DNA of 64,000 nucleotides from a virus (Duplodnaviria > Caudoviricetes). Position numbers and translations under genes: made by a program. The stretch covers positions 32,001 through 96,000 of IMG/VR virus record IMGVR_UViG_3300033463_000045; one strand, given 5' to 3'. Shown one piece after another: positions 30,171 to 51,178 of the stretch. The notes under the pieces are model-generated. The model was not told the DNA's origin. It was given only the letters and a program-made list of their open reading frames with translations, and made no database searches. Position 1 is the first letter of the stretch; each line of letters starts with the position of its first letter.

Positions 30171-30395
30171 ATGAATTTATATAGTAATATTAAAAATAAT
30201 ATTAATAGTGCAGATTCTAAGTATATGAAAGAATGGACAGAAATATGTGAAGCATTTTGTAAGAAGATAAATGCTGAACTATTATTTGTTAATCTTGATA
30301 ACTTTGGTTATATGACTAAAGATGGTCAAACTATTCATATGTATGCTGATGAGCTTGCAGAATATCTAAATAATAAAAATAAGAATAATCAGTAA
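30171..30395 (+). CDS. MNLY-leader family protein
   Basis: MNLYSNIKNN leader; its domain is duplicated in 31767..32636. Confidence 0.75.
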   Translation: MNLYSNIKNNINSADSKYMKEWTEICEAFCKKINAELLFVNLDNFGYMTKDGQTIHMYADELAEYLNNKNKNNQ

Positions 30396-30414
30396 ACAAT
30401 TTACTGATTATTTT
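30384..30414 (+). terminator. Intrinsic terminator
   Basis: AATAATCAGTAAA-caa-TTTACTGATTATTTT. Confidence 0.7.
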
Positions 30415-30437
30415 CTTTATATAAGAGGAGATTATTT

Positions 30438-30683
30438 ATGAACTTATATGAAAGTATTGAAAAAAATTTAAAAGAATCAGAAAAATCTTTGGAAGACAAA
30501 TGTAAAGAAATATTTAATAAATATAGAGATGAATTTGATACTATAAATGATGTAAGAGATATTGCAGATTATTTAAATAAATTATATTCAGAAGAAGGAA
30601 TACAAGCTGTAAATGATTGGTTCCTATCGAGTGCAACTGAAGAATACAAAAAAGATTTAAAATCTTTAATAAATAAAAAGTAG
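30438..30683 (+). CDS. MNLY-leader family protein
   Basis: MNLYESIEKNLKE|SE. Confidence 0.75.
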   Translation: MNLYESIEKNLKESEKSLEDKCKEIFNKYRDEFDTINDVRDIADYLNKLYSEEGIQAVNDWFLSSATEEYKKDLKSLINKK

Positions 30684-30697
30684 AAAGGAAAATAGAT

Positions 30698-30967
30698 ATG
30701 AACTTATATGAAAGTATTGAAAAAAATTTAAAAGAATCAGAACATTCTGATGATTATTGTACAATAGCTGCTACAGAATTTGTTGTTGATAGATTACCAA
30801 GTGATTGGAAAAATTTATCTAATGACGAATTAAAAGAATTAGTAAGAGAAGAAGTAAATAATTATAATAATGCTAATGTCGAACCTGAATATGAAAATGA
30901 AGATTTTTATGGTGATGAAGCAGATTATAATAAAGTATTTGATTATATAATATATAGTTATAAATAG
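30698..30967 (+). CDS. MNLY-leader family protein, acidic
   Basis: First 15 codons identical to those of 30438. Confidence 0.75.
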   Translation: MNLYESIEKNLKESEHSDDYCTIAATEFVVDRLPSDWKNLSNDELKELVREEVNNYNNANVEPEYENEDFYGDEADYNKVFDYIIYSYK

Positions 30968-30981
30968 AAAGGAAGATTAAA

Positions 30982-31752
30982 ATGAATTTATATGAAAGTA
31001 TTAAAAATAATTTAGATAAAGATTCAGATACAGAATTAGAAATTTTAGATACTCAAATAGATTTTCCTGCCGTGTTTGATTCATTTGATACAAGCGGCAT
31101 TATTGATATAATAAAAGACACTGATTCAAAAGATTTAAGTGCGTGTATTGCAGGAGGAACAAGAAGTTCTCGCGAACAAAATGCATATAATTTATATATA
31201 GATAAATGCATTTTATGTGGCAAAGTAGGTTATAATAATTTTATCCCAGTGCATAAAAATAAATATAAAGATTATAGTTATTGGTCGTATGAAGACAATT
31301 ATGGATGGCCTTTTTCTAATGTTCATTTTCCATCTGAAAAAGTAGCCAAAATAATAGTTAAAATACCTCATAAACAACGCAAAAAAATTTATATAAGAGC
31401 AAGAATATGTTTTTGCAAAGATTGTTATGAGAAAAATGTCGTACCATTTGTGCTTAAAAAAGCAGATGAAATTAAAAAAATTGTCGCTTATTATAGAGAT
31501 AATAATAAATATCCAAGTAAAGGCGAGGTTATAATTTTTGGTAAGGATATATTAGATATAATTAATGACGGGATAATTAATGCTAGTCATTATAATAAAC
31601 ATGAAAAAAATAAAATAATCGATAGATTATATCAAATTGTTGATTTAGAAACACCTTATAATGATGTTGATAAGATTTATGAAAGATTTCTCAAATATTT
31701 TATTTCATCGGGTAACGCTGATGACTCAATTAAATTTAATCCAAAGAAATAG
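30982..31752 (+). CDS. MNLY-leader family protein with CxxC pair
   Basis: MNLYESIKNNL; CILC...CKDC. Confidence 0.75.
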   Translation: MNLYESIKNNLDKDSDTELEILDTQIDFPAVFDSFDTSGIIDIIKDTDSKDLSACIAGGTRSSREQNAYNLYIDKCILCGKVGYNNFIPVHKNKYKDYSYWSYEDNYGWPFSNVHFPSEKVAKIIVKIPHKQRKKIYIRARICFCKDCYEKNVVPFVLKKADEIKKIVAYYRDNNKYPSKGEVIIFGKDILDIINDGIINASHYNKHEKNKIIDRLYQIVDLETPYNDVDKIYERFLKYFISSGNADDSIKFNPKK

Positions 31753-31766
31753 AAAGGAAGATTAAA

Positions 31767-32636
31767 ATGAATTTATATAGTAATATTAAAAATAATTTAA
31801 ATGAATCTGCAAAATTCTATTATAAAGAATTTAGTGGCGCTGGTGAAATTGATTATGTTGAATTTGAGACAGAACAAGAAGCAAATGATTATGCTAAAAA
31901 AGTTAATGAAGAATCTGGTAATGAAACAGCAGTATATAGAATAGATAATGATGAATGCATTGCTTTATATGACGCATTAAATGAATCTGAAAAGTTAAAA
32001 GAAGATGATAAGAGTTATTCCAAAGGAGTTAATGTATTAGATAAATTATATAGTAATCCTGAGTATGAAGCTTTATGGGATAAGAAATTTAATGAATTAG
32101 TCCCAAAATCAGGAAAAGCTAAGACAACTATTGGAGAGATTATGCGAGGATTTTCTTCATTAAGTCATGCATATTATCAAAATGGTGATACTGTTAATTC
32201 ATTATATCGTCAACATTTTAATAGCGGTTATTTACAAGATGCACATGATTTATATAAAGCAGTAAAAGAACTTGGAGATAGAACTCTTATTGATTTAACA
32301 GATAAAATGTTTAATACAAGAAGAGAAAGCGCTTATTGTAAATATATGGCAGCTTTTTATGAGTATTTTATAAATAATTATCTTTCAAAAGAAAATATAA
32401 ATGAATCTGAAGATAAAGTATTAGATTCTATTAATCAACTTTCTTATAATAAAAATAAGAAATTAGATAAATATATGGCTGAATGGGAATCTATTTGTCA
32501 AGCTTTTTGTAAAAAGATAGGAGCTAAATTATTATTTGTTAATATAAATAATTTTGGTTATGAAGATAAAGATGGAAATTTAGTTCATATGTATGCAGAT
32601 GAATTAGAACAATATTTAAAAAATAATAAAATTTAA
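31767..32636 (+). CDS. MNLY-leader three-domain polyprotein
   Basis: LNES / LNES-LKED / INES separate three modules. Confidence 0.75.
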   Translation: MNLYSNIKNNLNESAKFYYKEFSGAGEIDYVEFETEQEANDYAKKVNEESGNETAVYRIDNDECIALYDALNESEKLKEDDKSYSKGVNVLDKLYSNPEYEALWDKKFNELVPKSGKAKTTIGEIMRGFSSLSHAYYQNGDTVNSLYRQHFNSGYLQDAHDLYKAVKELGDRTLIDLTDKMFNTRRESAYCKYMAAFYEYFINNYLSKENINESEDKVLDSINQLSYNKNKKLDKYMAEWESICQAFCKKIGAKLLFVNINNFGYEDKDGNLVHMYADELEQYLKNNKI

Positions 32637-32652
32637 GAAAGGAGAAATAAAA

Positions 32653-35600
32653 ATGAACTTATATGAAAATATTAAAAATAATTTAAATGAAGATGAGAAT
32701 GTTCAATCAGGTATGACGTTATATGATTATATTAAAAATGTCTGTAATGGAGAAATAGACATGGACGTTTGTGATAATGATATAGATATGATGGTAGCAT
32801 TTTGTCATAATATAAATGAACATAGTTCAGAATACCCACAAATGGAAAGATTTTTAAATTTATTAGCAAAAAGAACTAAAATTATTAAACAAAATAATGG
32901 AGGATATGCTCCAATATTAATTTGTGATTTTAGTTCAGCATTAAAACCATATAATGAAGAGTGGAAGAAATTCTTTGATATGGATTATTCAGACTTTGAT
33001 GAAGATGAAGCATATTATGAAGCAGTAGTTAATCTTGAACCATTAATAAGCGGTAATGCAGGAGAAGATACTTATAAAGAATTTTGTGATATTATGGAAG
33101 GTAAAAAATTAGAAGAATCTGAAGAAGAAAATGAAGAACAAATTTGTGTTATATGTAATAAACCATTTACTGGTTGGGGTAATGACGCTTGGCCAGTAGC
33201 AGAAGGTTATTGTTGTGATGAATGCAATTTTTCTAAAGTAATTCCTGCAAGATTAGCTCAATTAAGAGAATATCGTAATGATACTAAAATAAAAGAATCT
33301 GAATCTTTTAAATTAAATAAAGATGCAGAAGATTTTGAAGATTTAGTAAAAAGAGATTTTCAAAATTATATAGAAGATACTTATAATATACAAAATGTTC
33401 AAGAATTAGCAGATAGATTAGAACACGTAACAGAAGAAGATATAAATGATTATTTTACAACTTTATTCTATGAAATATTTGACAATGAAGATATGGAAAC
33501 AGCTAATTTAGCAGAAGAAATTATAAGAAAAGAATATGGACTTCAAGATAATATAGATGAATCTGAAAAACAAGAAAAATTAAATGAGGCAAAAAATTAT
33601 GATGATTATTGGAATTTATCGGAAGATATTCCGATTATTCCTAATTTTGACCTTGATAATTTTCCAAAAGATAAATTGTGGCAATTAAGAAAAGAAATAA
33701 CTTTAGGAAGCCCATATTTATCTAAATATGATAATTCATTAGGTCTAAATCCAGCTGCTTTAAGAAATTTCTTTAATTCATTTGTTGAAAATGGAAAGAA
33801 TAATAATAAAACATTAAAAGATATAGATAATCAAGATGATTTATATAATTTTTATATAAATTGTGAAGACCCTTTTAATTTAAAAGACGAATTAGATGAA
33901 TCTGAAGAAGCAAATTTAACATTATCACAGATTAAAGATAATTTAGAAGCAATTAAAAATAATGAAGAAAGAAATTATGAAATATATGGAAGTGCATTAG
34001 AATTTCCAAGTATATTAGAAAAAATTGATAATGTAGATGACAGAAGAAAAGCATTAATGATGTTATATATGAATAATCCAAAGTTAGAAGAATTAAAAAC
34101 TTGGACTGCAAAACAAATTAAAGATTATATATTAGATACTGAGGAAGTATTTAATATAAATATTGATAGTAATTTTGATGAAGAACCAACTAATTATAGA
34201 AAAGCATACGCAAAATGTTTTGAATTAATTGGAACAAATTTAAATGAATCTGCTAAAGGACAATGGACAAGTGGTTTTAAAAAATTAGATGGTTATACTG
34301 AAGAAGAAGCTTATAAATTATTAGTTAAAGCGGCTAATATAAAGCTTAATACTTTTGCAAAGAATAATCATGATAATGAAGAACTTCAAAGAGAATTTGA
34401 AGAGAAATATAATGAACCATTTGGAATACAAATTGGTGGAGATACCGTAGGTAATTATGGTTATAATCCAAAATATTTAGAATTTTTAAATTCTAAAGGA
34501 AATTTAGATGAAGCAGAAGATAATCAATTATATGTATTTTCAAATGCAGAATCTGAAGATATGACAGATGCTATTAGTATGATTAATTCTATATATAAAA
34601 ATGAAGCTCCTAAATTACAATTTAAAATGCATTCAGAAGGACCTATGTGGTTTGTTGATTTTATAGGTAGTTATCAAGACATTTGTGATTATTTAATTAA
34701 GTTAGGTTGGTATAATGAAAAAGAAATAAATGATTTAACTAATAATAAATTAATTAGACCGTTACCTATAAAAGAATCAGAAGAAAAAGTAAATCCTAAT
34801 AATTTAACTAAAGAACAATTATGGAAATTAAGACAAGAAATAAGATTAAATAGTATATATACAAATGATTATGAAAATTCATTTGATTTAGACCCTGTAG
34901 CAGTTCAAGATTTCTTTGATACATTTATTGAAGATATGGAACAAGATGATGATGGAAATCCTAATAATAGAAAAATAGAAGATTATGATAATGCTGATGA
35001 TTTATATAATTTCTATACAGGTTGTGAAAATCCTTTTGGTGAAATAGAAGAAATTAAAGAATCAGAAGATTATTATGATGACGATGATGATTATTGGGAA
35101 GACCATAATGATGACCCAATAGAATGCACTATTGAATATGATGAAGATGGAAAACCATATTTTATGTATAATAATGAGAAAGAATATATAGATGAATATA
35201 TGAAAGATGGAGCAGGTGGAGCTACTAAACCATTAACAGCATTTTCAGCTATTAGAATAGTTCATTCAGATAATGGAGAAACTGTTAGTGTTCAATATCT
35301 TCATGATTCAGAAAAGATTAAAGAAGCAGAAGAATCAGATGAAGATAAAAAGTTATCTTTTAAAGAAAGAGTTCTTAAAGCATATGATAATTGTAATTAT
35401 TCAGTAAGGTCAGATATGCCAACAATTAAAGATATAATAGATTATTTAGACCTAAGTAATGATTCAGAAACAAGAGATAAAGTATCTCAAATTATTTATA
35501 AAGCAGGAAAAGATTGGCAAGTAGAAAGCTGTAATGAAGCAGAAGACAAAGAAGAATCTAAAGAAGAAGTAAAACATAAAGATGATATTAAAGTATATAT

Positions 35601-36306
35601 GAATACATGGAAAAATTATAATGAATATGGTGCAGATTTAGATGCTTATGGAATTAAAGATGGTTGGATGAATCCTGATGATGCATTAGAATTTTGTAAA
35701 AAATATGCAGAAGATGAACCGTTTATAAATGATATAGATAATAATAGCGGAATTGATATTGAAGTATCTGAATATGATAATGCTCCTTCAGTATTAGAAG
35801 GTTTAGCAAAATTAAATGATGTATTATATTTTGGAGCAGGAAATGCTGAAAAAGGAGATATTCCATTAGTATATGAAGCTTGGGCTGATAAAGAGTCAGC
35901 AACTACTCCATCATTAGAAAATATAGAAAATTTTATAGATTTCTTAGAAAATGGAGAATATTATGTTCATAATGATGTTACATCAACAGAAGATATTGGA
36001 AAATGGTATGTTGAAAATGTAGGTTATGAAGGAGTATCAAATATAGAAAATTATATTGACTCAGACCAAGTTAAAGAAGATTGGCAAGAAGATATAGACC
36101 AAAATTATTTAGATGATGATGGAAATCCAACAGAAGACTGGTACGAAGTTGATGATTCACTTGTTGACGAAGATATAGAATCAGCAAAACAAAGTAATGA
36201 TACTAATTTCTTTGATAAATATTTTGATTATGCATCTCTTGGAGACGATATTTATGGAGATGGAAATTGGTACGTAACAGATAATGGTTCAGTTGAAATA
36301 TATTAA
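32653..36306 (+). CDS. MNLY-leader polyvalent polyprotein (about 11 modules) with C-terminal ArdA-like antirestriction domain
   Basis: Repeated [LIV]xE[SAD] linkers; C-terminus IKVYMNTWKNYNE...YFDYASLGDDIYGDGNWYVTDNGSVEIY matches the ArdA pattern. Confidence 0.8.
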   Translation: MNLYENIKNNLNEDENVQSGMTLYDYIKNVCNGEIDMDVCDNDIDMMVAFCHNINEHSSEYPQMERFLNLLAKRTKIIKQNNGGYAPILICDFSSALKPYNEEWKKFFDMDYSDFDEDEAYYEAVVNLEPLISGNAGEDTYKEFCDIMEGKKLEESEEENEEQICVICNKPFTGWGNDAWPVAEGYCCDECNFSKVIPARLAQLREYRNDTKIKESESFKLNKDAEDFEDLVKRDFQNYIEDTYNIQNVQELADRLEHVTEEDINDYFTTLFYEIFDNEDMETANLAEEIIRKEYGLQDNIDESEKQEKLNEAKNYDDYWNLSEDIPIIPNFDLDNFPKDKLWQLRKEITLGSPYLSKYDNSLGLNPAALRNFFNSFVENGKNNNKTLKDIDNQDDLYNFYINCEDPFNLKDELDESEEANLTLSQIKDNLEAIKNNEERNYEIYGSALEFPSILEKIDNVDDRRKALMMLYMNNPKLEELKTWTAKQIKDYILDTEEVFNINIDSNFDEEPTNYRKAYAKCFELIGTNLNESAKGQWTSGFKKLDGYTEEEAYKLLVKAANIKLNTFAKNNHDNEELQREFEEKYNEPFGIQIGGDTVGNYGYNPKYLEFLNSKGNLDEAEDNQLYVFSNAESEDMTDAISMINSIYKNEAPKLQFKMHSEGPMWFVDFIGSYQDICDYLIKLGWYNEKEINDLTNNKLIRPLPIKESEEKVNPNNLTKEQLWKLRQEIRLNSIYTNDYENSFDLDPVAVQDFFDTFIEDMEQDDDGNPNNRKIEDYDNADDLYNFYTGCENPFGEIEEIKESEDYYDDDDDYWEDHNDDPIECTIEYDEDGKPYFMYNNEKEYIDEYMKDGAGGATKPLTAFSAIRIVHSDNGETVSVQYLHDSEKIKEAEESDEDKKLSFKERVLKAYDNCNYSVRSDMPTIKDIIDYLDLSNDSETRDKVSQIIYKAGKDWQVESCNEAEDKEESKEEVKHKDDIKVYMNTWKNYNEYGADLDAYGIKDGWMNPDDALEFCKKYAEDEPFINDIDNNSGIDIEVSEYDNAPSVLEGLAKLNDVLYFGAGNAEKGDIPLVYEAWADKESATTPSLENIENFIDFLENGEYYVHNDVTSTEDIGKWYVENVGYEGVSNIENYIDSDQVKEDWQEDIDQNYLDDDGNPTEDWYEVDDSLVDEDIESAKQSNDTNFFDKYFDYASLGDDIYGDGNWYVTDNGSVEIY

Positions 36307-36341
36307 TAAATACACAAATAAAATTAATATTAATAATAAAT

Positions 36342-36369
36342 AAAGAAGGTTATTTAAACCTTCTTTTTT
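36342..36369 (+). terminator. Intrinsic terminator
   Basis: AAAGAAGGTT-attta-AACCTTCTTTTTT. Confidence 0.75.
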
Positions 36370-36382
36370 CATAATATATAAT
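36368..36382 (+). promoter_or_regulatory. Class-1 motif
   Basis: TTCATAATATATAAT. Confidence 0.8.
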
Positions 36383-36399
36383 AGAAAGGGTAGATTATT

Positions 36400-37530
36400 A
36401 TGGATAAGAAATTAATGTATTATATTATTATTCATTATATTGATATGAGAAAACTTTTAAGAAGTCTTAATATTGATATTAGACCTAATAAAAGTATGCT
36501 ATGCCCGTTCCACCAAAATACTCGTACGCCCGCTGCTCATTTCTATGAGGAAGAAGATGGTAGTTGTAGAATATGGTGTTATTATGAGAATAGAATGTTT
36601 AGTAATATAGATATTTATAGAACATATAAACCGGACATTAATTTAGAAGAATTAGCTCAGAAGATATATGATAATTTACCTGATGAAGAAAAGAAAAAGG
36701 TATTTAATAATGTTAATGTAACTTATGAATTACCAGAATTACCGTATAATAAAGCATTAAATGATTTTAAAAATAATAAGATTTCTTTTGATATTTTATT
36801 AAATACAATTAATTATTTAACACCTAGAGATGATAATTCTAATTTATTAGATATAATATATTCTCAGGGCTTATCTGGTATATCAGATTTAAATAAAAAT
36901 AATAAATATGTATATTATATGAAGAATTATAAATCTAATTACAGATATATATTAGCTAATAAAATATTAATGACTATGCAAAATAAATTACCTAATTATA
37001 TAATAGAGTATTTTCAATATTCAGGAGATTCTATAATGTTACCTAATATAATAAATGATAGATTATATGCAATAACATTTAGAAATTTAAATGGAAATAA
37101 GCAATTTATAAAATTAGGAGTTGCATATTTATTTTATAATTTAGGTAATTTACCAAAAGATTTTAAATATGGCATGCCATTATTAATAACTGAAGGAAAT
37201 ATAGACTCTGATGTTGGTAAATTAATCTATCCATATTGTATTGCAACAATGACAAATTCATTATCAACAAATCAAATTCAATTATTATTAGGATTAACTA
37301 ATAAAGTAATAATAGCTTTTGATAATGATGAAGCCGGAGAAAAGGGATTTAAAAATGTTTATCATAAATTAAAATCATTTCAATTTGATGTTAAAAAATT
37401 TAAGCATAATTCTAATTTAAAAGATTTTGGTGATTTATTAGAATTAAAAATGAAAGATGAAGATGAATATAATTATATTTATCAAACATATAAGATACAA
37501 ATAGAGAATTTGGTTGGTGACGTGAGATGA
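36400..37530 (+). CDS. dnaG: DNA primase (DnaG-like)
   Basis: CPFH zinc-binding motif; TOPRIM ITEGNID, AFDNDEAG, KDFG. Confidence 0.85.
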   Translation: MDKKLMYYIIIHYIDMRKLLRSLNIDIRPNKSMLCPFHQNTRTPAAHFYEEEDGSCRIWCYYENRMFSNIDIYRTYKPDINLEELAQKIYDNLPDEEKKKVFNNVNVTYELPELPYNKALNDFKNNKISFDILLNTINYLTPRDDNSNLLDIIYSQGLSGISDLNKNNKYVYYMKNYKSNYRYILANKILMTMQNKLPNYIIEYFQYSGDSIMLPNIINDRLYAITFRNLNGNKQFIKLGVAYLFYNLGNLPKDFKYGMPLLITEGNIDSDVGKLIYPYCIATMTNSLSTNQIQLLLGLTNKVIIAFDNDEAGEKGFKNVYHKLKSFQFDVKKFKHNSNLKDFGDLLELKMKDEDEYNYIYQTYKIQIENLVGDVR

Positions 37531-37907
37531 AATATTTTGTAGATATTAATGAAGGAGATATACGATTAGTAATTAGAGCTTTAAGAAGATATAATACTAA
37601 AGGAGTAAAATATTTATTTTTTACAATATTCCCGTTATTAAGAGACGGTAATTTTGAAAATGAAGAAATAAGTAATAATAGATTTTATATTCCTTGGGAC
37701 AAATCATTCGAATTTGTTTATGGTAAAATATATGTAGAATTTTCAGTATTAGAAAATAATAAGATATATTTTATATTAAGTGATAAGATAAAATATATTT
37801 TATATTCTTTATATCATACAGCTGTTCAGATTGTTGATGGTATTCCAATTATAGATGAAAATGCATTATTTAAATATAATGTTTATAAAAATATTAAAAA
37901 TAGATAG
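37527..37907 (+). CDS. Hypothetical protein
   Basis: ATGA overlap. Confidence 0.65.
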   Translation: MKYFVDINEGDIRLVIRALRRYNTKGVKYLFFTIFPLLRDGNFENEEISNNRFYIPWDKSFEFVYGKIYVEFSVLENNKIYFILSDKIKYILYSLYHTAVQIVDGIPIIDENALFKYNVYKNIKNR

Positions 37908-37916
37908 GGTGATAAT

Positions 37917-38132
37917 ATGAAAAGAATTTTTCCAAGATTACAAGGACTGGAATGGCATAATATGAAAGAGTCATTGATACTTATTAGATATAGAAAAAGT
38001 ATTAATGGACATATTAAAGGAATTTATAAAGATAAATTTGATAATAAGTATACTCATTGGTTAAATGATGAAGAAATAGAAGAATTATCAAATAATATTA
38101 AAATTATGAAAGAGGGTATTAGAAATGTTTAA
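37917..38132 (+). CDS. Hypothetical protein
   Basis: ORF in chain. Confidence 0.6.
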   Translation: MKRIFPRLQGLEWHNMKESLILIRYRKSINGHIKGIYKDKFDNKYTHWLNDEEIEELSNNIKIMKEGIRNV

Positions 38133-38526: not shown

Positions 38527-38534
38527 GAGTAGAA

Positions 38535-38720
38535 GTGATTTGCATGATTAAACAATATTCTTTATATCTATTAAGATGGCAATTATCAACTCCTATTTTA
38601 GCTTTAGTATTGTATTTATTTAATTATAATGAATTAGTTGAGACAATATTAGCAAATTTAATAGGAGGTCTTATATTCTTTTGGGTAGATAAAAAGATAT
38701 TTCAACAAAAGACAAAATAG
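38535..38720 (+). CDS. Small two-TM membrane protein
   Basis: YLLRWQLSTPILA...ANLIGGLIFFWVD. Confidence 0.65.
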   Translation: MICMIKQYSLYLLRWQLSTPILALVLYLFNYNELVETILANLIGGLIFFWVDKKIFQQKTK

Positions 38721-38722
38721 AT

Positions 38723-38737
38723 TTCATAATATATAAT
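38723..38737 (+). promoter_or_regulatory. Class-1 motif
   Basis: TTCATAATATATAAT. Confidence 0.8.
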
Positions 38738-38757
38738 AGAAAATAAGGAGAAATAAT

Positions 38758-42382: not shown

Positions 42383-43756
42383 ATGGACATACCAAGTTAT
42401 TTATTAGGTAAACAAAAAGGCGGAGGAGGAACTCCTTATATATTACCTCCAGCAACAACTAATTCATTAGGTGGAATTAAAGTTGGTAATAATTTAACAG
42501 TAGAGAATGATGGTACTTTATCACCAGAAATTCTTAATGTTACATTTGATTATAATTTTGTTAGCAGATATTTTACAAATTTAGGACAAAATATAAAAGT
42601 TACTAATGCAGATGATATTGCAATTTTTGAAGATATAGAAACTTATTTAACAGCTCATGAAGAAGCAGATATAAATGCTTTTGTTGAGTATGGACAAGGA
42701 TATAATAAAATTCCAATAGAAACAGTTATCGATAATGGTTCTTTAAAAGAATTACATGGTAATATTACAATATCTACTGGAGATTGCTTCATTATGTCTG
42801 TTTATAAACAAGGTAATGATTTTTATATTAAACCAAATATATTTAATGTAAATTCTGGTGGAGGAAGTAGTATAACTCCAGTATTTGTACCAGTGGAAAC
42901 TATTATGGAAGCATATATTAATGCAATTTATCCAGTATGTCAGGGAATAGATTTTCCACTTAATACAGGATTTCCTTGGGAAGAATATCCTCATTTAGAA
43001 ATAGATTCAACAACATATCAAGATGAATATTCAGCAATAAAAGCAATTTTTGAAGACCCATATAATACAAAAAATATATTCTTTACATTAGATGGAATAG
43101 AATTACCTTGGTCATTTCAAAGAGACCCTCTTTCTAATTCTACACCATATACAGGAAATTTAACTATTAAAATACAAGATAATCTAGTTGTAATTGTTGC
43201 ATCACCAGAAGATGAAGAATCTGAAGACGACCCTATAGTATTTACTCATCCATTTCAAATGTATGCTACACCAATAAAAGCAGACCATACATTATACCCA
43301 TATTATTTGATTAATGTAGTAAATGAATCAGAGTTACAATCTTCTACTGGTGGACATAATCAATTTAGTACATATACTTATACAATAGATTTTGGTAATC
43401 CATTTCCAGAACCAGGAGACCCTATAACTCATAATGTTGTATTATATAATAATTTAATGCTATTATTAAATGCATGGCAATATGCTTATTATCCAAGTGG
43501 AGATTTCTATAGAGGTAGAGAATTAAAAGATTTCTTATTCTATTTAAGAACTCCTCATTTCAGTGATGGTATTCCAGTATATCAAATAAGATATGCTGAC
43601 CTTGAAGGTAAAGATAGTAATACTATATATTTCTCTTCATCACCAATAAATGCATCTGATGCTAATATAAATATGATAACAGGAACTATTGATATATCTC
43701 AAGACCCACCTGTGATTGAGTATACAGAATATTTCTTTGATAATACTCAAGCATAG
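42383..43756 (+). CDS. Tail/head fibre-like structural protein
   Basis: YILPPATTNSLGGIKVGNNLTVENDGTLS fibre repeat. Confidence 0.6.
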   Translation: MDIPSYLLGKQKGGGGTPYILPPATTNSLGGIKVGNNLTVENDGTLSPEILNVTFDYNFVSRYFTNLGQNIKVTNADDIAIFEDIETYLTAHEEADINAFVEYGQGYNKIPIETVIDNGSLKELHGNITISTGDCFIMSVYKQGNDFYIKPNIFNVNSGGGSSITPVFVPVETIMEAYINAIYPVCQGIDFPLNTGFPWEEYPHLEIDSTTYQDEYSAIKAIFEDPYNTKNIFFTLDGIELPWSFQRDPLSNSTPYTGNLTIKIQDNLVVIVASPEDEESEDDPIVFTHPFQMYATPIKADHTLYPYYLINVVNESELQSSTGGHNQFSTYTYTIDFGNPFPEPGDPITHNVVLYNNLMLLLNAWQYAYYPSGDFYRGRELKDFLFYLRTPHFSDGIPVYQIRYADLEGKDSNTIYFSSSPINASDANINMITGTIDISQDPPVIEYTEYFFDNTQA

Positions 43757-43772
43757 ATAAAAGGAGTTTATT

Positions 43773-44057
43773 TTGGAATATTTTGTTTCGATATTAGCAA
43801 TTATAGTTCCATCTTTAGTAACATTAATAACAAGTTCAAAACAACTTAAAATTTCTAAGATGCATGCTGCAAAACAAAGTATTTTACAAATGCAGATGGA
43901 AGACGTAATTGCTGTTGAAATATTACATAAAGTTCCAGTTAATCATACAAATATTCATTATGAATATGATGAATATAAAAAAGCAGGTGGAAATTCAGAT
44001 ATAGATTTAAAAATGGTAGAATATGAAGAGTGGTATGGAAAGATAAATAAAAAATAA
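43773..44057 (+). CDS. Holin-like or membrane protein
   Basis: N-terminal TM; YDEYKKAGGNS motif; TTG start with SD. Confidence 0.5.
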   Translation: MEYFVSILAIIVPSLVTLITSSKQLKISKMHAAKQSILQMQMEDVIAVEILHKVPVNHTNIHYEYDEYKKAGGNSDIDLKMVEYEEWYGKINKK

Positions 44058-44114
44058 ATATAGTTAGTAGCTATATTTATTTTATTTTGAATTTAACTTT
44101 TTATTTATTATTTA

Positions 44115-44130
44115 TTTTCATAAATAATAG
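44115..44130 (+). promoter_or_regulatory. Class-2 motif variant
   Basis: TTTTCATAAATAATAG, following a terminator at about 44053-44090. Confidence 0.5.
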
Positions 44131-44144
44131 AAAAGAGGAATATT

Positions 44145-44498
44145 ATGCGTCTAAGATTAAAAAATTCAGAAGAATTGGTAGAATCTGATAATACAACGAC
44201 AGCATTTATTGATATTGATGAAATATTATATTTTGCAGAGAAATATTTAAATGATGTTGTTGGAAAAGGATTTTCAATATATAAAAGACCAGATGGTCAA
44301 TTTATGTTAACGATGTTACAAAGTGAAATAGACAATTGGTTGGAATTACATAATAAAGTAAATAATATAGGAAATACAAATGAATCTGAAGATTCTTCAG
44401 AAGCAACACAACCAAATGATATTGCTAAAAAAGAAGAATATAAAAATATGGTAACTCCTACATTTAAAGTAGGAAAAAAGATTAAGGAGGAAAAATAA
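44145..44498 (+). CDS. Putative head/core protein (MRLRLK leader)
   Basis: LVES and TNES motifs. Confidence 0.6.
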   Translation: MRLRLKNSEELVESDNTTTAFIDIDEILYFAEKYLNDVVGKGFSIYKRPDGQFMLTMLQSEIDNWLELHNKVNNIGNTNESEDSSEATQPNDIAKKEEYKNMVTPTFKVGKKIKEEK

Positions 44499-44499
44499 T

Positions 44500-44760
44500 A
44501 TGAAAGCATTTTTTAAAGATAGTAATAAAATAATAATTAATTCAATGACTTATGATGAAGCATTGGTAGGAAAACAATTCTTAAAGGATTTAGAAGGTAA
44601 GCAATTAAAAGCAGAACAAAGAAATGATATTAATGATGATTTTGATGGTTTAGTTCTTACTATTGAAGAAATTCCTACATCTACAACACCTGAAGAACCA
44701 GAAGAACAAATAACTGAAGATACAGTTAATACAGTAATAGATAATGATAATGAAGGATAG
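44500..44760 (+). CDS. Acidic hypothetical protein
   Basis: SD AAGGAGG. Confidence 0.65.
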   Translation: MKAFFKDSNKIIINSMTYDEALVGKQFLKDLEGKQLKAEQRNDINDDFDGLVLTIEEIPTSTTPEEPEEQITEDTVNTVIDNDNEG

Positions 44761-44794
44761 TATATTTATTAGATAGAAAGAGAGATGTTATTTA

Positions 44795-45385
44795 ATGAAA
44801 ATTAGATTAAAAGAAGCTCCATTTGAAGAAGAAAATTATGTTGAAGATTTTACTAACAGTACTCCAGAAGTTCAAGCTCCATTAGATTTAGAAGTTGTAG
44901 AACCTGAAACAACCGATGAAGAATCTATTTTTATAGATGAAACAGACCCTAAGTTGACTGAGTTTATCTGTTCTGATGCATTAAATGAATTAAGAGATAT
45001 ATTAATAGAATTACCAGAAGATATTCATTTATTATTATTAGATAATAAAGTTATAGTAATAGCTAGAAATAGTAATGATGAGAAAAATGAAACATTCTTA
45101 TATTGTTTAAGAGATGAAGATGATGAATTTACTTTAATTCAAATGCCTTTAAAATTAGATGAGATATTAGCAAATGATTCTATAATTCAATATACTCCAG
45201 CAAATATTTCTGATGTACATGATAAAGTAGTAGAATTATTTGCAAGAGAATTGGAACCAGAAGATGAAGAAACAGAAGAAGTAATTCCTGAAGAAAGTAT
45301 AGAAGATAATATAGATAATGATATAGAAGAAGATATAAATATTGAGGAGGAAGACGAGGATGAAGAAGATAAAATTAGTTCTTAA
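44795..45385 (+). CDS. Highly acidic protein, putative prohead core
   Basis: MKIRLKE|A leader; E/D-rich. Confidence 0.6.
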   Translation: MKIRLKEAPFEEENYVEDFTNSTPEVQAPLDLEVVEPETTDEESIFIDETDPKLTEFICSDALNELRDILIELPEDIHLLLLDNKVIVIARNSNDEKNETFLYCLRDEDDEFTLIQMPLKLDEILANDSIIQYTPANISDVHDKVVELFARELEPEDEETEEVIPEESIEDNIDNDIEEDINIEEEDEDEEDKISS

Positions 45386-46589
45386 TGAATCTTTAGTTAC
45401 TAATATAAATACTAATCAAGTAGACCTAATTGAAGATGTATCAGTACAACAAAAACCTGATTATCAAATTATTGATATTACAGTAATTCCTGATGAAGAA
45501 TATAATCCTACAATTCAATCAATTTTAATTGACCTAGATGAAAGCAGTAGATTATGTGAATCTGTAGATGAATCTAAAAATTTATCTATTAATATATTAT
45601 CTGAAACAGTTAACATAAAAACAGGTTATAGTAATTCATTATTTGAATTTGAAAATAAAAATCATACTATTACATTATCATTGGTTCTACAAGAGACTGA
45701 AAAAAGAGGAATTTATAAAGTTGAAGCATACACAACTAAAGGTGAAAAGGTATTTGAATCAAATACTTGCAAACCTAGAAAATTAATTGAATCATATTTA
45801 AATAGTTTAGCTGTTGAGTATTTAATTGATAGACCATTAAAAGAATCAGAACAAGATGATATGGAATGGTTAAAAGATACTGGATATGAAGATGAATTAG
45901 AAGAAATGATAAAGAATTTTAAACCAAGTGGAGATATAGAAAAAGATACACTTCGTTTAGTAAATCGCGCTAGTAATTATTTTTATGATATTGTTGGTAT
46001 ACATAATGACAATGTAGAAAGAGCATATTATACTTGGGCAGAAGAAAAAGCTAAACAATTAAATGAAACAGAAGATAAAAAATTACATAAATTAAATGAA
46101 TCAAATTTAAAAGAAGATGCGATTGATAATGCGAGAGCTGATACTGCTATGGGTGGTGTAGCTTATGATGATTATATGACAAATTTTAGACAAGACAACT
46201 CAGATGAAAATGAAGACCCTATTAAAGATGATGTTAAAAGAGATTTAAATATAGAACCCGGTTCAGATGAAGAATCAATGTTGGACGACTTGTATTATGA
46301 CGATGAAGAAATTGAAGAAGAAAAAGATTATTCAGTAGAAGAATTTATGCAAGCAAATAAATTAACTGATGAAGTTAAAAATTTAAATATAGATTATTCA
46401 GAATGGAATAACATGAATCAAGAAGAAAGAGATAAATTAGTTACTCCTGAATTAAATAGATTTTATAATAAATATAAAGTAGAATTTGATAAAAATCCTA
46501 AATTATTTGAATTATTACAATATAATTTAACTGATGATAACTTCCATACAGAAGCTAAAATATTAAGAGATTTAAGAGGAGGAGAATAA
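45360..46589 (+). CDS. Multi-module protein with xE|S sites
   Basis: MKKIKLVLNE|S behind SD; LCES, VDES, LKES, LNET, LNES, LKED. Confidence 0.65.
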   Translation: MKKIKLVLNESLVTNINTNQVDLIEDVSVQQKPDYQIIDITVIPDEEYNPTIQSILIDLDESSRLCESVDESKNLSINILSETVNIKTGYSNSLFEFENKNHTITLSLVLQETEKRGIYKVEAYTTKGEKVFESNTCKPRKLIESYLNSLAVEYLIDRPLKESEQDDMEWLKDTGYEDELEEMIKNFKPSGDIEKDTLRLVNRASNYFYDIVGIHNDNVERAYYTWAEEKAKQLNETEDKKLHKLNESNLKEDAIDNARADTAMGGVAYDDYMTNFRQDNSDENEDPIKDDVKRDLNIEPGSDEESMLDDLYYDDEEIEEEKDYSVEEFMQANKLTDEVKNLNIDYSEWNNMNQEERDKLVTPELNRFYNKYKVEFDKNPKLFELLQYNLTDDNFHTEAKILRDLRGGE

Positions 46590-46592
46590 TAT

Positions 46593-48017
46593 ATGAGAAT
46601 ACCAAAAGGATTTATTAAAGACTCAGAAGGAATTTATAGAAGAGGAAATTTTGTATTTAGAGATAACAAAATATTTAGAGAATCCGCTATTGTTCCTAAA
46701 GGTACTATTGAAGAAGTTGCTGATAATTATACTACTGTTTCAGAATGTATAAGAGCAATTTTAGCATTCCCTGCTTCTATTGGTGAAAAACCAAGAACAA
46801 CAGATATATATGTTAATAAAGTAGGAAATAATTTTAAACAATCAGATAAATTTACAAAAGATACAGTTGCAATAGTTACATCAGATAGAAATGTAATAGA
46901 TATTAAAGCAAAAGATATTAGTGATTCAACAGAATTTAAAGATTTAATTAGTAAAGATAAACCAGTTAAAGCAAAAGAAATTAAAAGTTTTAGTTCAGAT
47001 AAACCAAAAGATTCTCAAGAAGTAATTAGAACAGGATTAAAGGAATCTGAAAGTTCTATAGTACGAGTTGACGTATATACAGATGCATCAGATGAAAATG
47101 GCATTATACAAGAATTAAGAACAAATTCAAATCCAATACCACAAGAAATAGGAATTAAAGTTCTTAATGAACATGGTCCAGCGGGTGGAAATCCAGAAAT
47201 TCTTTTAATTGGCGATTTAAATGTAATTAAAAACTGGTTACATACTGAGTTATTTGATGATGATATGTATGTTGTAATAAAGGAATCTTATTCAGAAAAA
47301 CTTGGAGGAGACCCAGAAGATTTTATCTCAGATGTAAATGATATATTAGCTCATGTTAAAACATTTGATACAAATAAACTTGCTACTAAATTAGCATATG
47401 AAATAATAGAAGATTTTGAGATGAAATGTGAAGATTTAATTAGTATGGCTAAAGGTAAATATTTAAATATTATATACAGGAATAAATCATTCAATGAATC
47501 TGCTGAGGGTGTTGATGAGTTCTGGGATAAATTTGATAAAGGTGAAGTTAAAATCGGTGACAAATTTGAAAATGGTCCAGAATTATTAAAAGCAAATAAA
47601 AAAGCAGATTATATCTTAGTATTTAAAAATGATGAATATGTTGCCGCTTGGGCTCCTGAATTAAGTGGTGGAGATTTAGTTTGGGGACAAGGACATTATT
47701 TTGATAATGAAAAAGATGCTAACGAATATTTTAGTTCTAAATTAAATGAGTCAGAAAAGTTAAATGAAGAATTTTATGATTGGAACTATAATAGTATATC
47801 AAAAGAACCTGACGAAGAAAAAGAATATCAAGAAGTTAAAAAAGAACTAGAAAAAAAGAGATATTATAATAAATCAATTAAAGATTTTAAAAAAGGGTAT
47901 ATTGATGCTGAAGGTTTAAAAGAAGATTTAATATATAAGTCTGAAGGATTTATTCATAATAATAGAAAATACATAAATAGATATGTTGATGAACTTACTG
48001 GTTCAGCAGAAAAATAA
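46593..48017 (+). CDS. Multi-module polyprotein with xE|S sites
   Basis: FRES, LKES, IKES, FNES, LNES linkers; modules include GPAGGNPEI and AW...WGQGHYF. Confidence 0.7.
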   Translation: MRIPKGFIKDSEGIYRRGNFVFRDNKIFRESAIVPKGTIEEVADNYTTVSECIRAILAFPASIGEKPRTTDIYVNKVGNNFKQSDKFTKDTVAIVTSDRNVIDIKAKDISDSTEFKDLISKDKPVKAKEIKSFSSDKPKDSQEVIRTGLKESESSIVRVDVYTDASDENGIIQELRTNSNPIPQEIGIKVLNEHGPAGGNPEILLIGDLNVIKNWLHTELFDDDMYVVIKESYSEKLGGDPEDFISDVNDILAHVKTFDTNKLATKLAYEIIEDFEMKCEDLISMAKGKYLNIIYRNKSFNESAEGVDEFWDKFDKGEVKIGDKFENGPELLKANKKADYILVFKNDEYVAAWAPELSGGDLVWGQGHYFDNEKDANEYFSSKLNESEKLNEEFYDWNYNSISKEPDEEKEYQEVKKELEKKRYYNKSIKDFKKGYIDAEGLKEDLIYKSEGFIHNNRKYINRYVDELTGSAEK

Positions 48018-48041
48018 AATAAATAGAAAGGAAAAGCAAAT

Positions 48042-49355
48042 ATGAATTTATACGAGTCAATTAAAAAGAATTTAAAAACAAAAGAGAGAATATCTAAATT
48101 AAATGAATCTGAGAATAATTTAAAAGAGGTTATTCGTACAGGTTTAGAAATGAAAGATTATTTAAAGTTAAATGGTTTTGAATCTCTTGTTAATAAAATA
48201 GATGATGATAAAGCAACTTATAGATTATATTTAGACCCAGTAAAAGGAACATTTAGTGGTAATTATAAATTAGAAAAAATAAATGAATCTTGTGGAAGAA
48301 AGAAAAAAATTAAAATAAAAGAAAGTAATTTAGCAAAATATCTTGGAGTTGCTCAATCATTAACAGAAAAAGTAAATCATGCTAATGATGATATTAATGC
48401 TAAAATACTAGAAGCTTTAAGAAGTAAATATAAAGCAAAGAAATATGCAGATGATTTTAAAAAAGCAGGAATTACAGTAGATGATTCACCAAGAGAAGGT
48501 GTTACATTAATTGGACCTAATGGTAAAAGATTATCTGCTGACAGATTAGAAATACATGGACCAGCAAAACCAGGACATAATAATACTCATGGTGGTCGTT
48601 ATGGTTCAAGAATTAAATCTAAAATAAAAGATTTAGATAATTATAATAAGAGAATAGCAGAACAAAAAGAAAATATTGAAAATCTTAAAAATGCTGAGCA
48701 TGATGATATTATTAGAAAATATCCTAATAAAACTACTGAAGAAGCTTTAAAAGCACATGAAGATAATATTGCTAGTGAAGAAAGTAGTTTAAATTGGAAT
48801 AAGAGATGGAGAAAAGATACTCAAAAAGATATTGCTCGTGAACATAGAAATCGTGCTGAGGGACATAATAGTGATTTAGGATATGGAAATAGAATTATTG
48901 ATAGAAAATCATCTGCGATTGATAAAATAGACTATAAAGGTTATTTAGACTCTAAGGATAATGATATTAATAAAGACTTTACAGGTGGCGGTTATGTAAA
49001 ACCTACTCCAGGACAACAAGTTAGACAAGACCTTAAAAATGCTAAAGATAAAGTAAATAATACTTATTATAGATGGGATGCTCAAGATGTTGCAAGAGAT
49101 AGAAAAATTGATGCGAAAGCAATTGAAGCCCGTAAGAAAGAAATTGAAGAAGAATATAAAAAGAAAATGGACGATGAAGTAAATAGAATGTTAGAAAGAA
49201 AATCTAAAGCAGATTCTAGTTATAAAGACCATAAAGAATATTATAGAAAAAATGTTAATGATTTAAATGCTTTTAGAAAACAACATAATTTACCAACAAA
49301 AGATGAAGATTCATTCGATGATTATCTTGAAAAGAAAGCTAATTCAAATTGGTAA
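48042..49355 (+). CDS. MNLY-leader family protein with basic coiled-coil body
   Basis: MNLYESIKKNL; LNES, INES, IKES, LTEK. Confidence 0.75.
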   Translation: MNLYESIKKNLKTKERISKLNESENNLKEVIRTGLEMKDYLKLNGFESLVNKIDDDKATYRLYLDPVKGTFSGNYKLEKINESCGRKKKIKIKESNLAKYLGVAQSLTEKVNHANDDINAKILEALRSKYKAKKYADDFKKAGITVDDSPREGVTLIGPNGKRLSADRLEIHGPAKPGHNNTHGGRYGSRIKSKIKDLDNYNKRIAEQKENIENLKNAEHDDIIRKYPNKTTEEALKAHEDNIASEESSLNWNKRWRKDTQKDIAREHRNRAEGHNSDLGYGNRIIDRKSSAIDKIDYKGYLDSKDNDINKDFTGGGYVKPTPGQQVRQDLKNAKDKVNNTYYRWDAQDVARDRKIDAKAIEARKKEIEEEYKKKMDDEVNRMLERKSKADSSYKDHKEYYRKNVNDLNAFRKQHNLPTKDEDSFDDYLEKKANSNW

Positions 49356-49370
49356 TAAGGAGGACTTCTT

Positions 49371-49709
49371 ATGAATTTATATGAAAGTATAAAGAATAAT
49401 CAAAAATTTAATGAGGCAGAAGAAAAAACTTTAGTAACAATATATCAAGTTCCAACAGGAAAAGATTATGCTTTTATGGATTATGATTTTGCTAAAGAAC
49501 ATGGATTTAATTTTAATGACTATGAAAAAGTTGCTGATATTGAAGTGCCAATAAGTACTGACTTAGAAGAAATCTTTACATTAGGTAATATACATAAAGA
49601 TATGTTCAATGCCTCTAGAGATAAATTTAGAAGTATTTCTGTTTCAGATATAATTGAAAAAGATGGTAAAAAATATTACGTAGATTCATTCGGATTTAAG
49701 GAGGTATAA
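49371..49709 (+). CDS. MNLY-leader protein carrying a YodL-like domain
   Basis: IYQ...YAFM...DYEKV...LEEIF...RSISVSDII...YYVDSFGFKEV. Confidence 0.78.
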   Translation: MNLYESIKNNQKFNEAEEKTLVTIYQVPTGKDYAFMDYDFAKEHGFNFNDYEKVADIEVPISTDLEEIFTLGNIHKDMFNASRDKFRSISVSDIIEKDGKKYYVDSFGFKEV

Positions 49710-49711
49710 AT

Positions 49712-50347
49712 ATGGCATTAGTTGAAATAGGAATTACTGGTAATGCAGGATATAGCACAAATCAAGTAAGAAAAATGTCTGTTAGCGAATTAATATCAGA
49801 ATTAGAAAATTTTGATTCTGAAGATGAAGTATATTTAAAAGATGCTGGAAATAGATATGGCGCAGCTTATGGACAAATTAATTATATAGAACAAGGTTTA
49901 TCAGAAGATTATGAAGATGATGACGAAGATGAATATTATGAATCAAATCTTTATTCAATGATTAAGAGCAATCAAAAATTAAATGAAAGTGTAGATGATA
50001 CTAAAACAGATGAAATTTTTAATTTATTTGTTGAGTTAGCTAATGAAATAGAAAATAAATATAATGTTAGTGATATTACTTCTAAATTAAATAAATCTGA
50101 TATGAAAGTAAGTGAAAAATGGGGTTCTTATAATTTGTATGTTAAGAATTATATGACAATACCATTTCTTAATTGTCCTTTAAATATAGATTTTGAATTT
50201 CATTCAGATGATAATAAATTTAAAGTTAGAGCATTATTATCAAATCCAGATTCAACAGGTTTTTGGTCAGATGTAATGAAGGGAAAAACTCTTGCATCTG
50301 GTAAATATGAAAATAATAATATTAGATTTTATAAAGATAAACAATAA
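49712..50347 (+). CDS. Two-module protein with an internal MNLY-type motif
   Basis: ...YESNLYSMIKSNQKLNE|SV... Confidence 0.7.
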   Translation: MALVEIGITGNAGYSTNQVRKMSVSELISELENFDSEDEVYLKDAGNRYGAAYGQINYIEQGLSEDYEDDDEDEYYESNLYSMIKSNQKLNESVDDTKTDEIFNLFVELANEIENKYNVSDITSKLNKSDMKVSEKWGSYNLYVKNYMTIPFLNCPLNIDFEFHSDDNKFKVRALLSNPDSTGFWSDVMKGKTLASGKYENNNIRFYKDKQ

Positions 50348-50359
50348 GGAGGAATAAAT

Positions 50360-51178
50360 ATGGGAGTATTAAAAGTATTAAAAGGTACATTATCTACATT
50401 AGGTAAAAAGAATCGTAATGGTCGTATTTATTCTAAAGAGTTATGGGAAAATGTTCTTAATTCTGAATATTGGAATGATATGATGAGTAATAATTCATTA
50501 TTTGGAGAATGTGTTCATCCTGCAGATAATAGAAGTACATCAGATTCATTTGAAATAGATGCTAATAATGTATCTCATAGAATTAAAGAAGCTCATATTG
50601 AAGGAGATAAATTAATAGGTACTGTTGAAATATTAGATACTCAAGCAGGAAAAAATATTGCAGCATTAATTGATAGTGGTTGTAATATAGGAATATCTGC
50701 AAGAGGTGCAGGAGACCTTAATGGTGATACTGTAGACCCAGATACTTATCAATTTAAAACTTTTGATTTAACATTTAGACCTTCTGATTATAATGCTAGA
50801 CTAGTTCCTTTAACTGAATCAGAAAAGAAAAACTTTAAACCTATTAAAGAATCTGAAGAATCAGATACATTAATTAAAGGTGCAGAAGAAATAAATTCTA
50901 CTAAAGTAGATAAAGATATTAAAAAAGGTTTAAAAGATAGAGTAGTTAAGAAATATATTGATGGTTATACAGATAAACCAATTCAATTTAGTAAATTTAC
51001 AATAGAAATATTACCCACTACTTCTGATACTGATAAATTAAGAGTTGCTGTATATGATAAAGAGCATGACGCAAGAGAGATTGTTGGTTATTTTAATAAA
51101 GATGACATACATACAGATGATTCGTTAGTTGAAAAAATATTAGATATAATGAGTTATTCATACGAATATGATTTATAA
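50360..51178 (+). CDS. Prohead core protease (T4 gp21-like)
   Basis: KNRNGRIYS, LFGECVHP, VSHRI, ILDTQAGK, GISARGAG, FDLTFRPS. Confidence 0.9.
   Translation: MGVLKVLKGTLSTLGKKNRNGRIYSKELWENVLNSEYWNDMMSNNSLFGECVHPADNRSTSDSFEIDANNVSHRIKEAHIEGDKLIGTVEILDTQAGKNIAALIDSGCNIGISARGAGDLNGDTVDPDTYQFKTFDLTFRPSDYNARLVPLTESEKKNFKPIKESEESDTLIKGAEEINSTKVDKDIKKGLKDRVVKKYIDGYTDKPIQFSKFTIEILPTTSDTDKLRVAVYDKEHDAREIVGYFNKDDIHTDDSLVEKILDIMSYSYEYDL

Follow-up and report, generated by a model that had tools for sequence, protein, structure and literature searches.

We describe a set of phage genes whose products share a short N-terminal leader peptide, differ almost completely in the sequence behind it, and carry, at the end of the leader and between the modules of the longer proteins, a motif of the kind read by prohead proteases. 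The genes lie in a stretch of 64,000 nucleotides (nt), hereafter the window, which covers positions 32,001 to 96,000 of the IMG/VR virus record IMGVR_UViG_3300033463_000045 (Duplodnaviria; Caudoviricetes). The phage record of which the window is a part measures 112,265 base pairs (bp) with direct terminal repeats, has a guanine plus cytosine (GC) content of about 23%, and has every gene on one strand. Positions below are those of the window unless given as genome coordinates. The reading we favor, and consider probable as a full mechanism, is that a targeting sequence of the T4 internal-protein type and the cleavage code of a prohead protease have been extended to polyvalent polyproteins that arise from fused, tagged cassettes. 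The tag and the removal of the leader, taken by themselves, deserve greater confidence than this, and the complete separation of all modules, together with injection, deserves less.

A leader peptide on unrelated proteins

Eight open reading frames (ORFs) of the window, those beginning at 30171, 30438, 30698, 30982, 31767, 32653, 48042 and 49371, open with the leader M-N-L-Y-(E/S/K)-(S/N)-I-x-x-N. The initial annotation had reported these eight starts on unrelated bodies, and both parts of that statement were borne out: all eight begin so, and an all-against-all BLAST of the proteome finds only one shared cassette, the body of ORF 30171, which is 64% identical (E 1e-23) to the last module of ORF 31767, where it starts right behind an INE↓S site (the arrow marks the predicted cut). 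A variant leader said to occur at 29242 proved to be the same leader minus residues 2-3, and an internal copy placed in ORF 49712 was located at 49943-49987, residues 78-92; a leader-like peptide also occurs near the C-terminus of the 98-amino-acid (aa) orthologue of that ORF. The leader genes and their close variants are as follows (pI, isoelectric point).

29242..29655, + strand: 137-aa ORF with truncated leader ending LKE, first gene of the first cluster; promoter-like motif upstream at 29212
30171..30395, + strand: 74-aa leader ORF with no site behind the leader; its body is also the C-terminal module of ORF 31767
30438..30683, + strand: 81-aa leader ORF; leader ends LKE↓S at residue 13
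30698..30967, + strand: 89-aa leader ORF with an unrelated acidic body; first 15 codons identical to those of ORF 30438
30982..31752, + strand: 256-aa leader ORF with a Cys-rich (zinc-finger-like) body; no Glu site directly behind the leader
31767..32636, + strand: 289-aa leader ORF with three modules; sites after residues 13, 73/79 and 213
32653..36306, + strand: 1217-aa polyprotein, leader plus about 11 modules (60-255 aa), as judged from motif sites and homology blocks
48042..49355, + strand: 437-aa leader ORF; sites after residues 22, 82 and 94; pI 9.3
49371..49709, + strand: 112-aa leader ORF with a YodL-like body (Pfam YodL)
49712..50347, + strand: 211-aa ORF with a phrog_3939-type N-terminal domain, internal leader and site (49943-49987), and a 119-aa cargo
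Extra leader genes, genome coordinates: 12479 (979 aa), 99923, 100292, 100936 (543 aa) and 105281 (starts MSLY)

Searched permissively in all six frames, the complete genome has N-terminal leaders at 13 gene starts. Every + strand match after an ATG is a gene start, and the other frames contain no comparable match. Leader ORFs together make up 4,895 of the 35,497 coded residues, or 13.8%. The leader had further been described as usually followed by a site of the LNE/LKE/FNE type. This holds for six of the eight window leaders, which have hydrophobic-x-Glu no more than 22 residues after the leader, and fails for ORFs 30171 and 30982; across the genome, 10 of 13 leaders have a site at residues 11-13 or within 22 residues.

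The leader is conserved as a peptide, because the Shine-Dalgarno sequence is the only part shared in the upstream DNA, with similarity ending there, and because the codons of the leader vary synonymously (Leu as TTA, CTA or CTT; Ser as AGT or TCA; Asn as AAT or AAC; Ile as ATT or ATA), both inside the genome and in relatives of 26-32% GC. A repeat at the level of DNA only was considered separately and is rejected in view of this synonymous variation and of the internal copies. Tyr4 is invariant, residue 7 is Ile or Val, and the leader, modeled by AlphaFold as a short helix over residues 3-10, has no hydrophobic signal-peptide character. The leader string was not found in the literature searched.

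A predicted cleavage motif shared with the prohead protease and head proteins

The second cluster of leader genes is followed by a protease gene, and further genes bear on the motif.

50360..51178, + strand: prohead protease of the T4 gp21 family (S77), assigned by Pfam, phrog_207 and the 5jbl profile comparison
44145-44498, 44795-45385 and 45342-46589, + strand: three prohead-core-like ORFs, each with a short basic N-terminal propeptide ending hydrophobic-x-Glu
46593..48017, + strand: 474-aa motif-rich protein directly upstream of a variable leader-gene slot, conserved in every relative

ORF 50360 scores 44.5 bits against Pfam model PF03420 (Peptidase_S77; cut-off 27) and 5.8e-41 against phrog_207, and a profile built from 17 of its homologues matches PDB entry 5jbl, T4 gp21, with E 2.7e-7. 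His53 and Ser113, invariant in the 17 homologues, align with two positions occupied by Ala in the 5jbl chain; these would be the catalytic residues, mutated there to inactivate the enzyme. Two predicted sites of the self-cleavage type, at 50807-50821 (PLTE↓S) and 50840-50854 (PIKE↓S), stand straight behind the catalytic domain, in agreement with the initial call of a gp21-like protease with LTES and IKES at this place. Both sites are invariant in the 17 homologues (Glu153-Ser154 and Glu164) amid a C-terminal region that is otherwise hypervariable, and the first aligns with the ITE-S position of T4 gp21, a protease processed at its C-terminus (PMC9026906).

Elsewhere among the head genes, the portal protein (phrog_213) has a double motif site at residues 14 and 20 of its N-terminus, and sites follow residues 34 and 63 of the gp23-like capsid protein (Pfam Gp23); T4 gp23 loses 65 residues (PMC9026906). 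The prohead-core-like ORF 45342 contains eight motif sites. Judged by sequence, then, the motif marks places at which a maturation protease of the T4 type would be expected to cut head proteins. As a separate observation, the prohead-core-like proteins carry a second class of propeptide, M-(K/R)-(I/L)-(K/R)-L-x-E, at window positions 44145, 44795 and 45342 and at genome position 10148; it is distinct from the cargo leader and is kept in all relatives examined.

The motif [LI][NKDE]E[SA] occurs 34 times in the leader ORFs, against 2.9 times in shuffled sequences, an enrichment of about 11-fold, so that the excess over the rest of the proteome foreseen in the initial annotation is present. The remaining 30,602 residues contain 37 occurrences against 13.8 expected, with the excess concentrated in a few genes and in head genes. 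Local composition does not explain the enrichment, since it is specific to one order of residues: the ordered form [LI][NKD]E[SA] is found 32 times in the leader ORFs, and 23 other orderings of the same residue classes are found zero to eight times each. Sites are frequently doubled, a few residues apart, and follow the extended consensus K-[LIM]-[NKD]-E↓[SA]-E, with Lys at P4, Leu or Ile at P3, Asn, Lys or Asp at P2, Glu at P1, Ser or Ala at P1' and Glu at P2'.

One could suppose that the shared start has nothing to do with the capsid and is a cassette for translation initiation or regulation, a recombination hot spot, or a tag that sends proteins elsewhere, with the Glu-Ser motifs as unrelated linkers. 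Two gene pairs are indeed identical in DNA over the Shine-Dalgarno sequence and start codon, tandem gene arrays are typical of cassette exchange, and a promoter-like motif, TTTCATAATATATAATA, precedes replication, tail and leader-cluster genes alike and does not set the leader genes apart in time of expression. Such a supposition would have to accommodate residue-level conservation with synonymous changes that persists in relatives of other GC content, leader copies at internal and C-terminal places where no initiation occurs, a leader that ends in the very motif of the portal, capsid-protein and protease processing positions, and the lack of signal-peptide character. We hold it to be very improbable, the least probable of the three alternatives considered here.

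The motif TTTCATAATATATAATA stands 26-33 nt upstream of start codons, at window positions 29212, 36370, 38725, 52340, 60333 and 60744 and at about 15 more places in the genome. Its core occurs 20 times in the genome, 11 of them within the 4% that is intergenic, and precedes replication (primase, helicase), tail, lysis-region and leader-cluster genes alike. A generic sigma-70 scan returned background levels only, and no + strand terminator was found between 42088 and 52500.

Modular architecture of the long leader proteins

The claim that sites of the xE[SA] type divide the long members into modules is supported in ORF 32653, whose sites follow residues 13, 155, 215, 303/312, 416, 532, 620, 708, 803, 891 and 962. 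Its modules 313-416 and 709-803 are duplicates, 46% identical, and each ends at its site. When the 1217-aa protein was searched against shorter proteins, 133 matches fell into discrete BLAST blocks (residues 3-155, about 305-420, 615-703, 708-806 and 963-1217), and 28 of the 60 distinct internal block ends lie no more than five residues from a motif site, against 10% expected; related matches in this test are not independent of each other.

Relatives fuse or split modules at motif sites, and a multiple alignment shows whole cassettes gained or lost exactly between sites. Module 1, N-terminal in ORF 32653, is internal in two proteins of relatives (P0120 and P0194), flanked there by x-N-E↓S, and a cassette of the ORF 30171 type is internal in a third (P0122), where a KLNE↓S site follows it. 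In one relative (L005) the orthologue of ORF 48042 forms an in-frame fusion with another tagged module that precedes it, and its own leader is preserved whole, with the Met, inside the fused protein. The way in which polyproteins arise is visible here: tagged cassettes become joined, and the leader that is kept provides the site at the junction.

The initial annotation had also proposed AlphaFold as a check of whether the motifs fall in linkers between domains. For residues 1-532 (17-row alignment) the model has the leader helix, a disordered connector, and a confident alpha/beta domain over residues 17-155 that ends at site 155. For residues 804-1217 (33-row alignment) the C-terminal domain has a predicted local distance difference test (pLDDT) score above 90, and sites 891 and 962 fall in stretches with pLDDT below 50. 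Where the models are confident, the sites are thus predicted to sit at domain edges or in low-confidence linkers; this much of the proposal stands for sites 155, 891 and 962, and residues 156-532 are too poorly modeled for the linkers in that part to be judged.

The same data could be read differently, with the tag and leader removal real and the long proteins largely uncut. Internal motifs would then be vestiges of leaders kept where cassettes were fused, or favored flexible linkers, and the product a true multidomain polyvalent protein, delivered whole as in plasmids and phage N4. Some internal sites of ORF 32653, such as 532 and 620, do have the look of decayed leaders; the internal proteins of T4 undergo a single cut (PMC8442874), and several polyvalent proteins are transferred uncleaved (Iyer et al. 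2017, PMC5512222). Sites at module borders nonetheless persist in divergent relatives, also where the modules on either side are not the same; many are doubled in the manner of the portal N-terminus, which matches the propeptide redundancy of phiKZ (PMC9026906); and order-specific enrichment reaches P4 (Lys) and P2' (Glu). We regard the uncut alternative as unlikely, although it is the strongest of the three, and continue to prefer cleavage between modules.

Cargo families

Two cargos could be assigned to families, one of them the last module of the polyprotein.

35539..36303, + strand: ArdA-like C-terminal module, residues 963-1217 of ORF 32653, assigned from Pfam matches of homologues and from fold

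The window module itself scores 21.8 bits (E 3e-4) against PF07275, below the cut-off of 27. Among homologues at 38-56% identity, 14 of 16 match ArdA, the best with E 2.8e-11, and in a Foldseek search of the PDB the only significant matches to the predicted fold are chains A and B of 2w82 (E 2.3e-4, probability 1.00, target TM-score 0.48-0.56). An ArdA profile searched against PDB sequences alone gave E 0.06, which is not significant. The assignment is made because of the Pfam matches in homologues and the fold; by both sequence and predicted structure, the module appears to belong to this anti-restriction, DNA-mimic family. Stand-alone ArdA homologues in related phages have their own leader and site before the start of the conserved domain, whereas those of other elements start directly with the domain. 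No description of ArdA as tagged head cargo was found in the literature searched.

ORF 49371 matches YodL (PF14191) with 41.9 bits, against a cut-off of 24, over residues 22-112, which is everything behind the leader and site. The leader and site form a 19-residue extension that YodL homologues outside the clade lack. The polyvalent proteins for which packaging and delivery alongside DNA have been predicted count both ArdA and YodL among their domains (PMC5512222).

For polyprotein modules 1-10 and the remaining cargos, searches of Pfam and PHROGs yielded no significant family; a fold search with module 1 gave no match above Z 4.4, and up to E 1 the polyprotein and its modules matched no peptidase family. 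A match to the zinc ribbon DUF4428 was weak (E 0.009) and is not relied on. It concerns a small Cys-rich zinc-ribbon module at 33118-33297 (CxxC ... CCxxC), a type that recurs at the N-terminus of a 578-aa protein adjoining the protease in a relative (L004).

Most cargos are strongly acidic; the polyprotein ORF 32653 has a pI of 4.1 and a net charge of -172. The sole basic cargo is ORF 48042, which by analogy with the basic internal proteins of T4 might have a DNA-associated role.

The acidic composition and the many Glu sites are also what one would see if the leader proteins were sacrificial filler of the prohead core or scaffold, chopped and expelled before DNA entry as are T4 gp22, gp67 and gp68, with nothing functional injected. 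T4 core proteins are cut into multiple fragments that exit the head (PMC9026906), and leader genes here lie between core-like genes and the protease. The modules, however, are folded domains of 60-255 aa that include ArdA and YodL, families found in unrelated mobile elements without any head context; the cargo is hypervariable between close relatives, unlike essential scaffolds; and ArdA expelled into a dying cell would be useless. We judge the scaffold explanation improbable, more so than that of uncut proteins, and return to delivered cargo as the favored reading.

Relatives and genome context

None of the cultured phages is close; the best matches to the capsid protein reach only 23-30% identity (Listeria LIS04, Bacillus SP-15 and HSE3, and a Streptococcus phage). 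CHAP and CW_7 lysins indicate that the host is probably Gram-positive; no tRNA genes were found in the window, and hence tRNAs give no clue to the host. A distant blastn search with window 30000-37000 against cultured phages gave no match. Searches of IMG/VR with two leader DNA patterns and with a protease-based locus search returned no relatives, and a scan of Joint Genome Institute (JGI) metagenomes returned one contig. The relatives used throughout are drawn from a protein collection only.

That collection contains 98 homologues of the protease, many on contigs of 110-127 kb. The loci around five of them each have ORFs, small or large, that bear the leader and flank the protease, and the bodies differ from phage to phage. 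Relatives with proteases 50-88% identical, and with 26-32% GC, keep the leader on different cargos, and more distant members have related tags that retain the core I-x-x-N-L-x-E. A hot-spot slot lies between a conserved protein of 430-470 aa and the protease, and the tagged genes in it differ by genome; it recalls the variable internal-protein loci of T-even phages (PMC12373910).

Several observations lie to one side of this comparison. In one distant relative (L010, 8418-9998 and 12234-13928), an FtsK/SpoIIIE-family protein has a leader-like start; the protease of the same relative is 564 aa long, starts with a leader-like peptide as well, and has a long extension at its C-terminus. In the window, a family-A DNA polymerase is apparently split into separate ORFs (62176-63471, and 63586 onward), with a partial match to phrog_17, and adjacent tail-fibre-like proteins at 54395-55840 and 55855-56793 have a common collar-type segment, 65% identical over 26 residues.

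A proposed mechanism and the points that weigh against it

The central proposal of the initial annotation, one address tag and one protease code for polyprotein cargos, draws support from the motif enrichment, the sites in head proteins, the modularity, and the ArdA and YodL families, and the computational checks put forward with it all turned out favorable. We infer that the proteins bind the core, are cut at these sites, stay in the head, are injected and act against host defenses, steps that would join these observations. The short N-terminal helix (residues 3-10, with invariant Tyr4 and a hydrophobic residue 7) would dock nascent cargo on the prohead core. After shell assembly, the gp21-family serine protease would cut the leader-end site K-[LIM]-[NKD]-E↓[SA]-E and so remove the leader. 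With the same site repeated between modules, one tagged polypeptide could carry up to about 11 independent domains, which would be freed within the head and would exit together with the DNA on infection. Polyproteins would arise by in-frame fusion of neighboring leader-cargo cassettes, the retained internal leader serving as a cleavable junction. The cargo would comprise ArdA-type and YodL-type domains, zinc ribbons, one basic protein and many other domains, about 40 modules that make up 13.8% of the proteome.

Several points weigh against this mechanism. Two leaders, those of ORFs 30171 and 30982, have no site behind them. Residues 156-532 of the polyprotein have pLDDT below 50 in the model from the 17-row alignment, so the predicted linkers at 215, 303/312 and 416 cannot be judged. 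Most cargos are very acidic where T4 internal proteins are basic, and acidity combined with many sites resembles T4 scaffold. The first cluster lies amid replication genes, behind the same motif, TTTCATAATATATAATA, that also precedes primase, helicase and tail genes. Last, by sequence the resemblance to the T4 tag (Tyr4 and residue 7) is too slight to prove homology.

A broader form of the proposal is plug-and-play effector loading across the whole clade of uncultured, AT-rich, T4-like phages, in which any gene that gains the tag is packaged, tagged neighbors fuse, and one code frees about 40 modules per genome, pre-made ArdA among them. This we treat as a serious possibility, though we would lean slightly against it as it stands. 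If it is true, pre-made ArdA meets restriction enzymes before phage gene expression, and the tag becomes a sequence-only handle for finding injected anti-defense proteins in metagenomes.

Injected phage proteins act ahead of any phage gene expression. Outside T4, P1, N4 and the phiKZ group few have been identified, because sequence does not normally reveal them. The tag and cleavage code would label the injected set directly, here about 14% of coding capacity and mostly without function by annotation, and such labeling would extend to at least dozens of related metagenomic phages. Protein-delivered ArdA would be a new mode of deployment for a well-known anti-restriction family. For predicted polyvalent proteins, a prohead protease that cuts cassette junctions in trans would offer a concrete processing mechanism, and tagged cassettes that fuse and split would suggest how such proteins evolve. 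As has been done with the T4 tag, this tag could also be used to package proteins for delivery by phages that infect Gram-positive hosts.

Comparison with known systems

T4 internal proteins have in common only a 10-residue tag, which brings them to the prohead core and which gp21 cuts off at I-x-E; targeting needs residues 4 and 7 and processing residues 8 and 10, and the injected proteins block restriction enzymes (PMC8442874, PMC9026906, PMC12373910). Like T4 IPI, IPII, IPIII and Alt, the proteins described here are otherwise unrelated, non-essential and hypervariable products with a short N-terminal tag that ends in hydrophobic-x-Glu, here the predicted cut site of an S77 prohead protease. 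Tyr at position 4 and a hydrophobic residue at 7 coincide with the positions on which targeting depends in T4 (PMC9026906), as in T4 the cargo would include anti-restriction functions (PMC12373910), and the genome encodes a gp23-like capsid protein and a T4-like portal. Unlike that of T4, the tag has 13 residues, its Leu-x-Glu stands three residues further on, and no sequence homology is demonstrable, since only Tyr4 and the hydrophobic residue 7 coincide in peptides too short for statistics. There are at least 13 tagged genes (13.8% of the proteome) against three or four in T4; polyproteins have up to about 11 modules with internal sites, where T4 internal proteins are cut once; and the cargo is mostly acidic where that of T4 is basic. 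The host is probably Gram-positive, and the nearest cultured phages have 23-30% capsid-protein identity.

Polyvalent proteins (Iyer, Burroughs, Anand, de Souza, Aravind 2017, PMC5512222) are likewise long, with many unrelated conflict-related domains and with ArdA and YodL in their repertoire; they are predicted to be packaged in capsids and delivered together with DNA, they undergo extensive domain shuffling, and Firmicutes elements are rich in them. The architecture seen here is of that type, with independent homology blocks that differ in order and number between relatives. Release of polyvalent proteins has been proposed to proceed via embedded peptidases, mainly zincin-like and rarely C-terminal assemblin-like (PMC5512222). 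Here, in contrast, the polyproteins have an N-terminal tag, no peptidase domain was found in them, and their junctions bear the site of a prohead protease encoded by a gene of its own.

In phiKZ, 201phi2-1 and SPN3US, too, many head proteins are processed by a relative of gp21, which cuts behind Glu in short motifs; the sites are redundant, and products are ejected into the host (PMC9026906, PMC10052503). Their site is (S/A/G)-x-E, they are giant phages of Gram-negative hosts, and their cargos have no common N-terminal tag and are not described as chains of shuffled cassettes. The Dar system of phage P1 (DarA, DarB, Hdf, Ulx) similarly consists of injected anti-restriction proteins packaged in the head, some of them proteolytically processed, but its packaging order is a protein-protein hierarchy with no common leader, and its capsid and protease belong to other lineages.

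A tag with a gp21-type cut is thus already known from T4, multi-site processing of ejection proteins from the phiKZ group, and polyvalent proteins from computational work. What is new is the combination of the tag-and-cut and polyvalent ideas in a previously undescribed clade, a trans-acting prohead protease that would read cassette junctions, the fusion and fission of tagged cassettes visible between relatives, and ArdA and YodL as tagged cargo.

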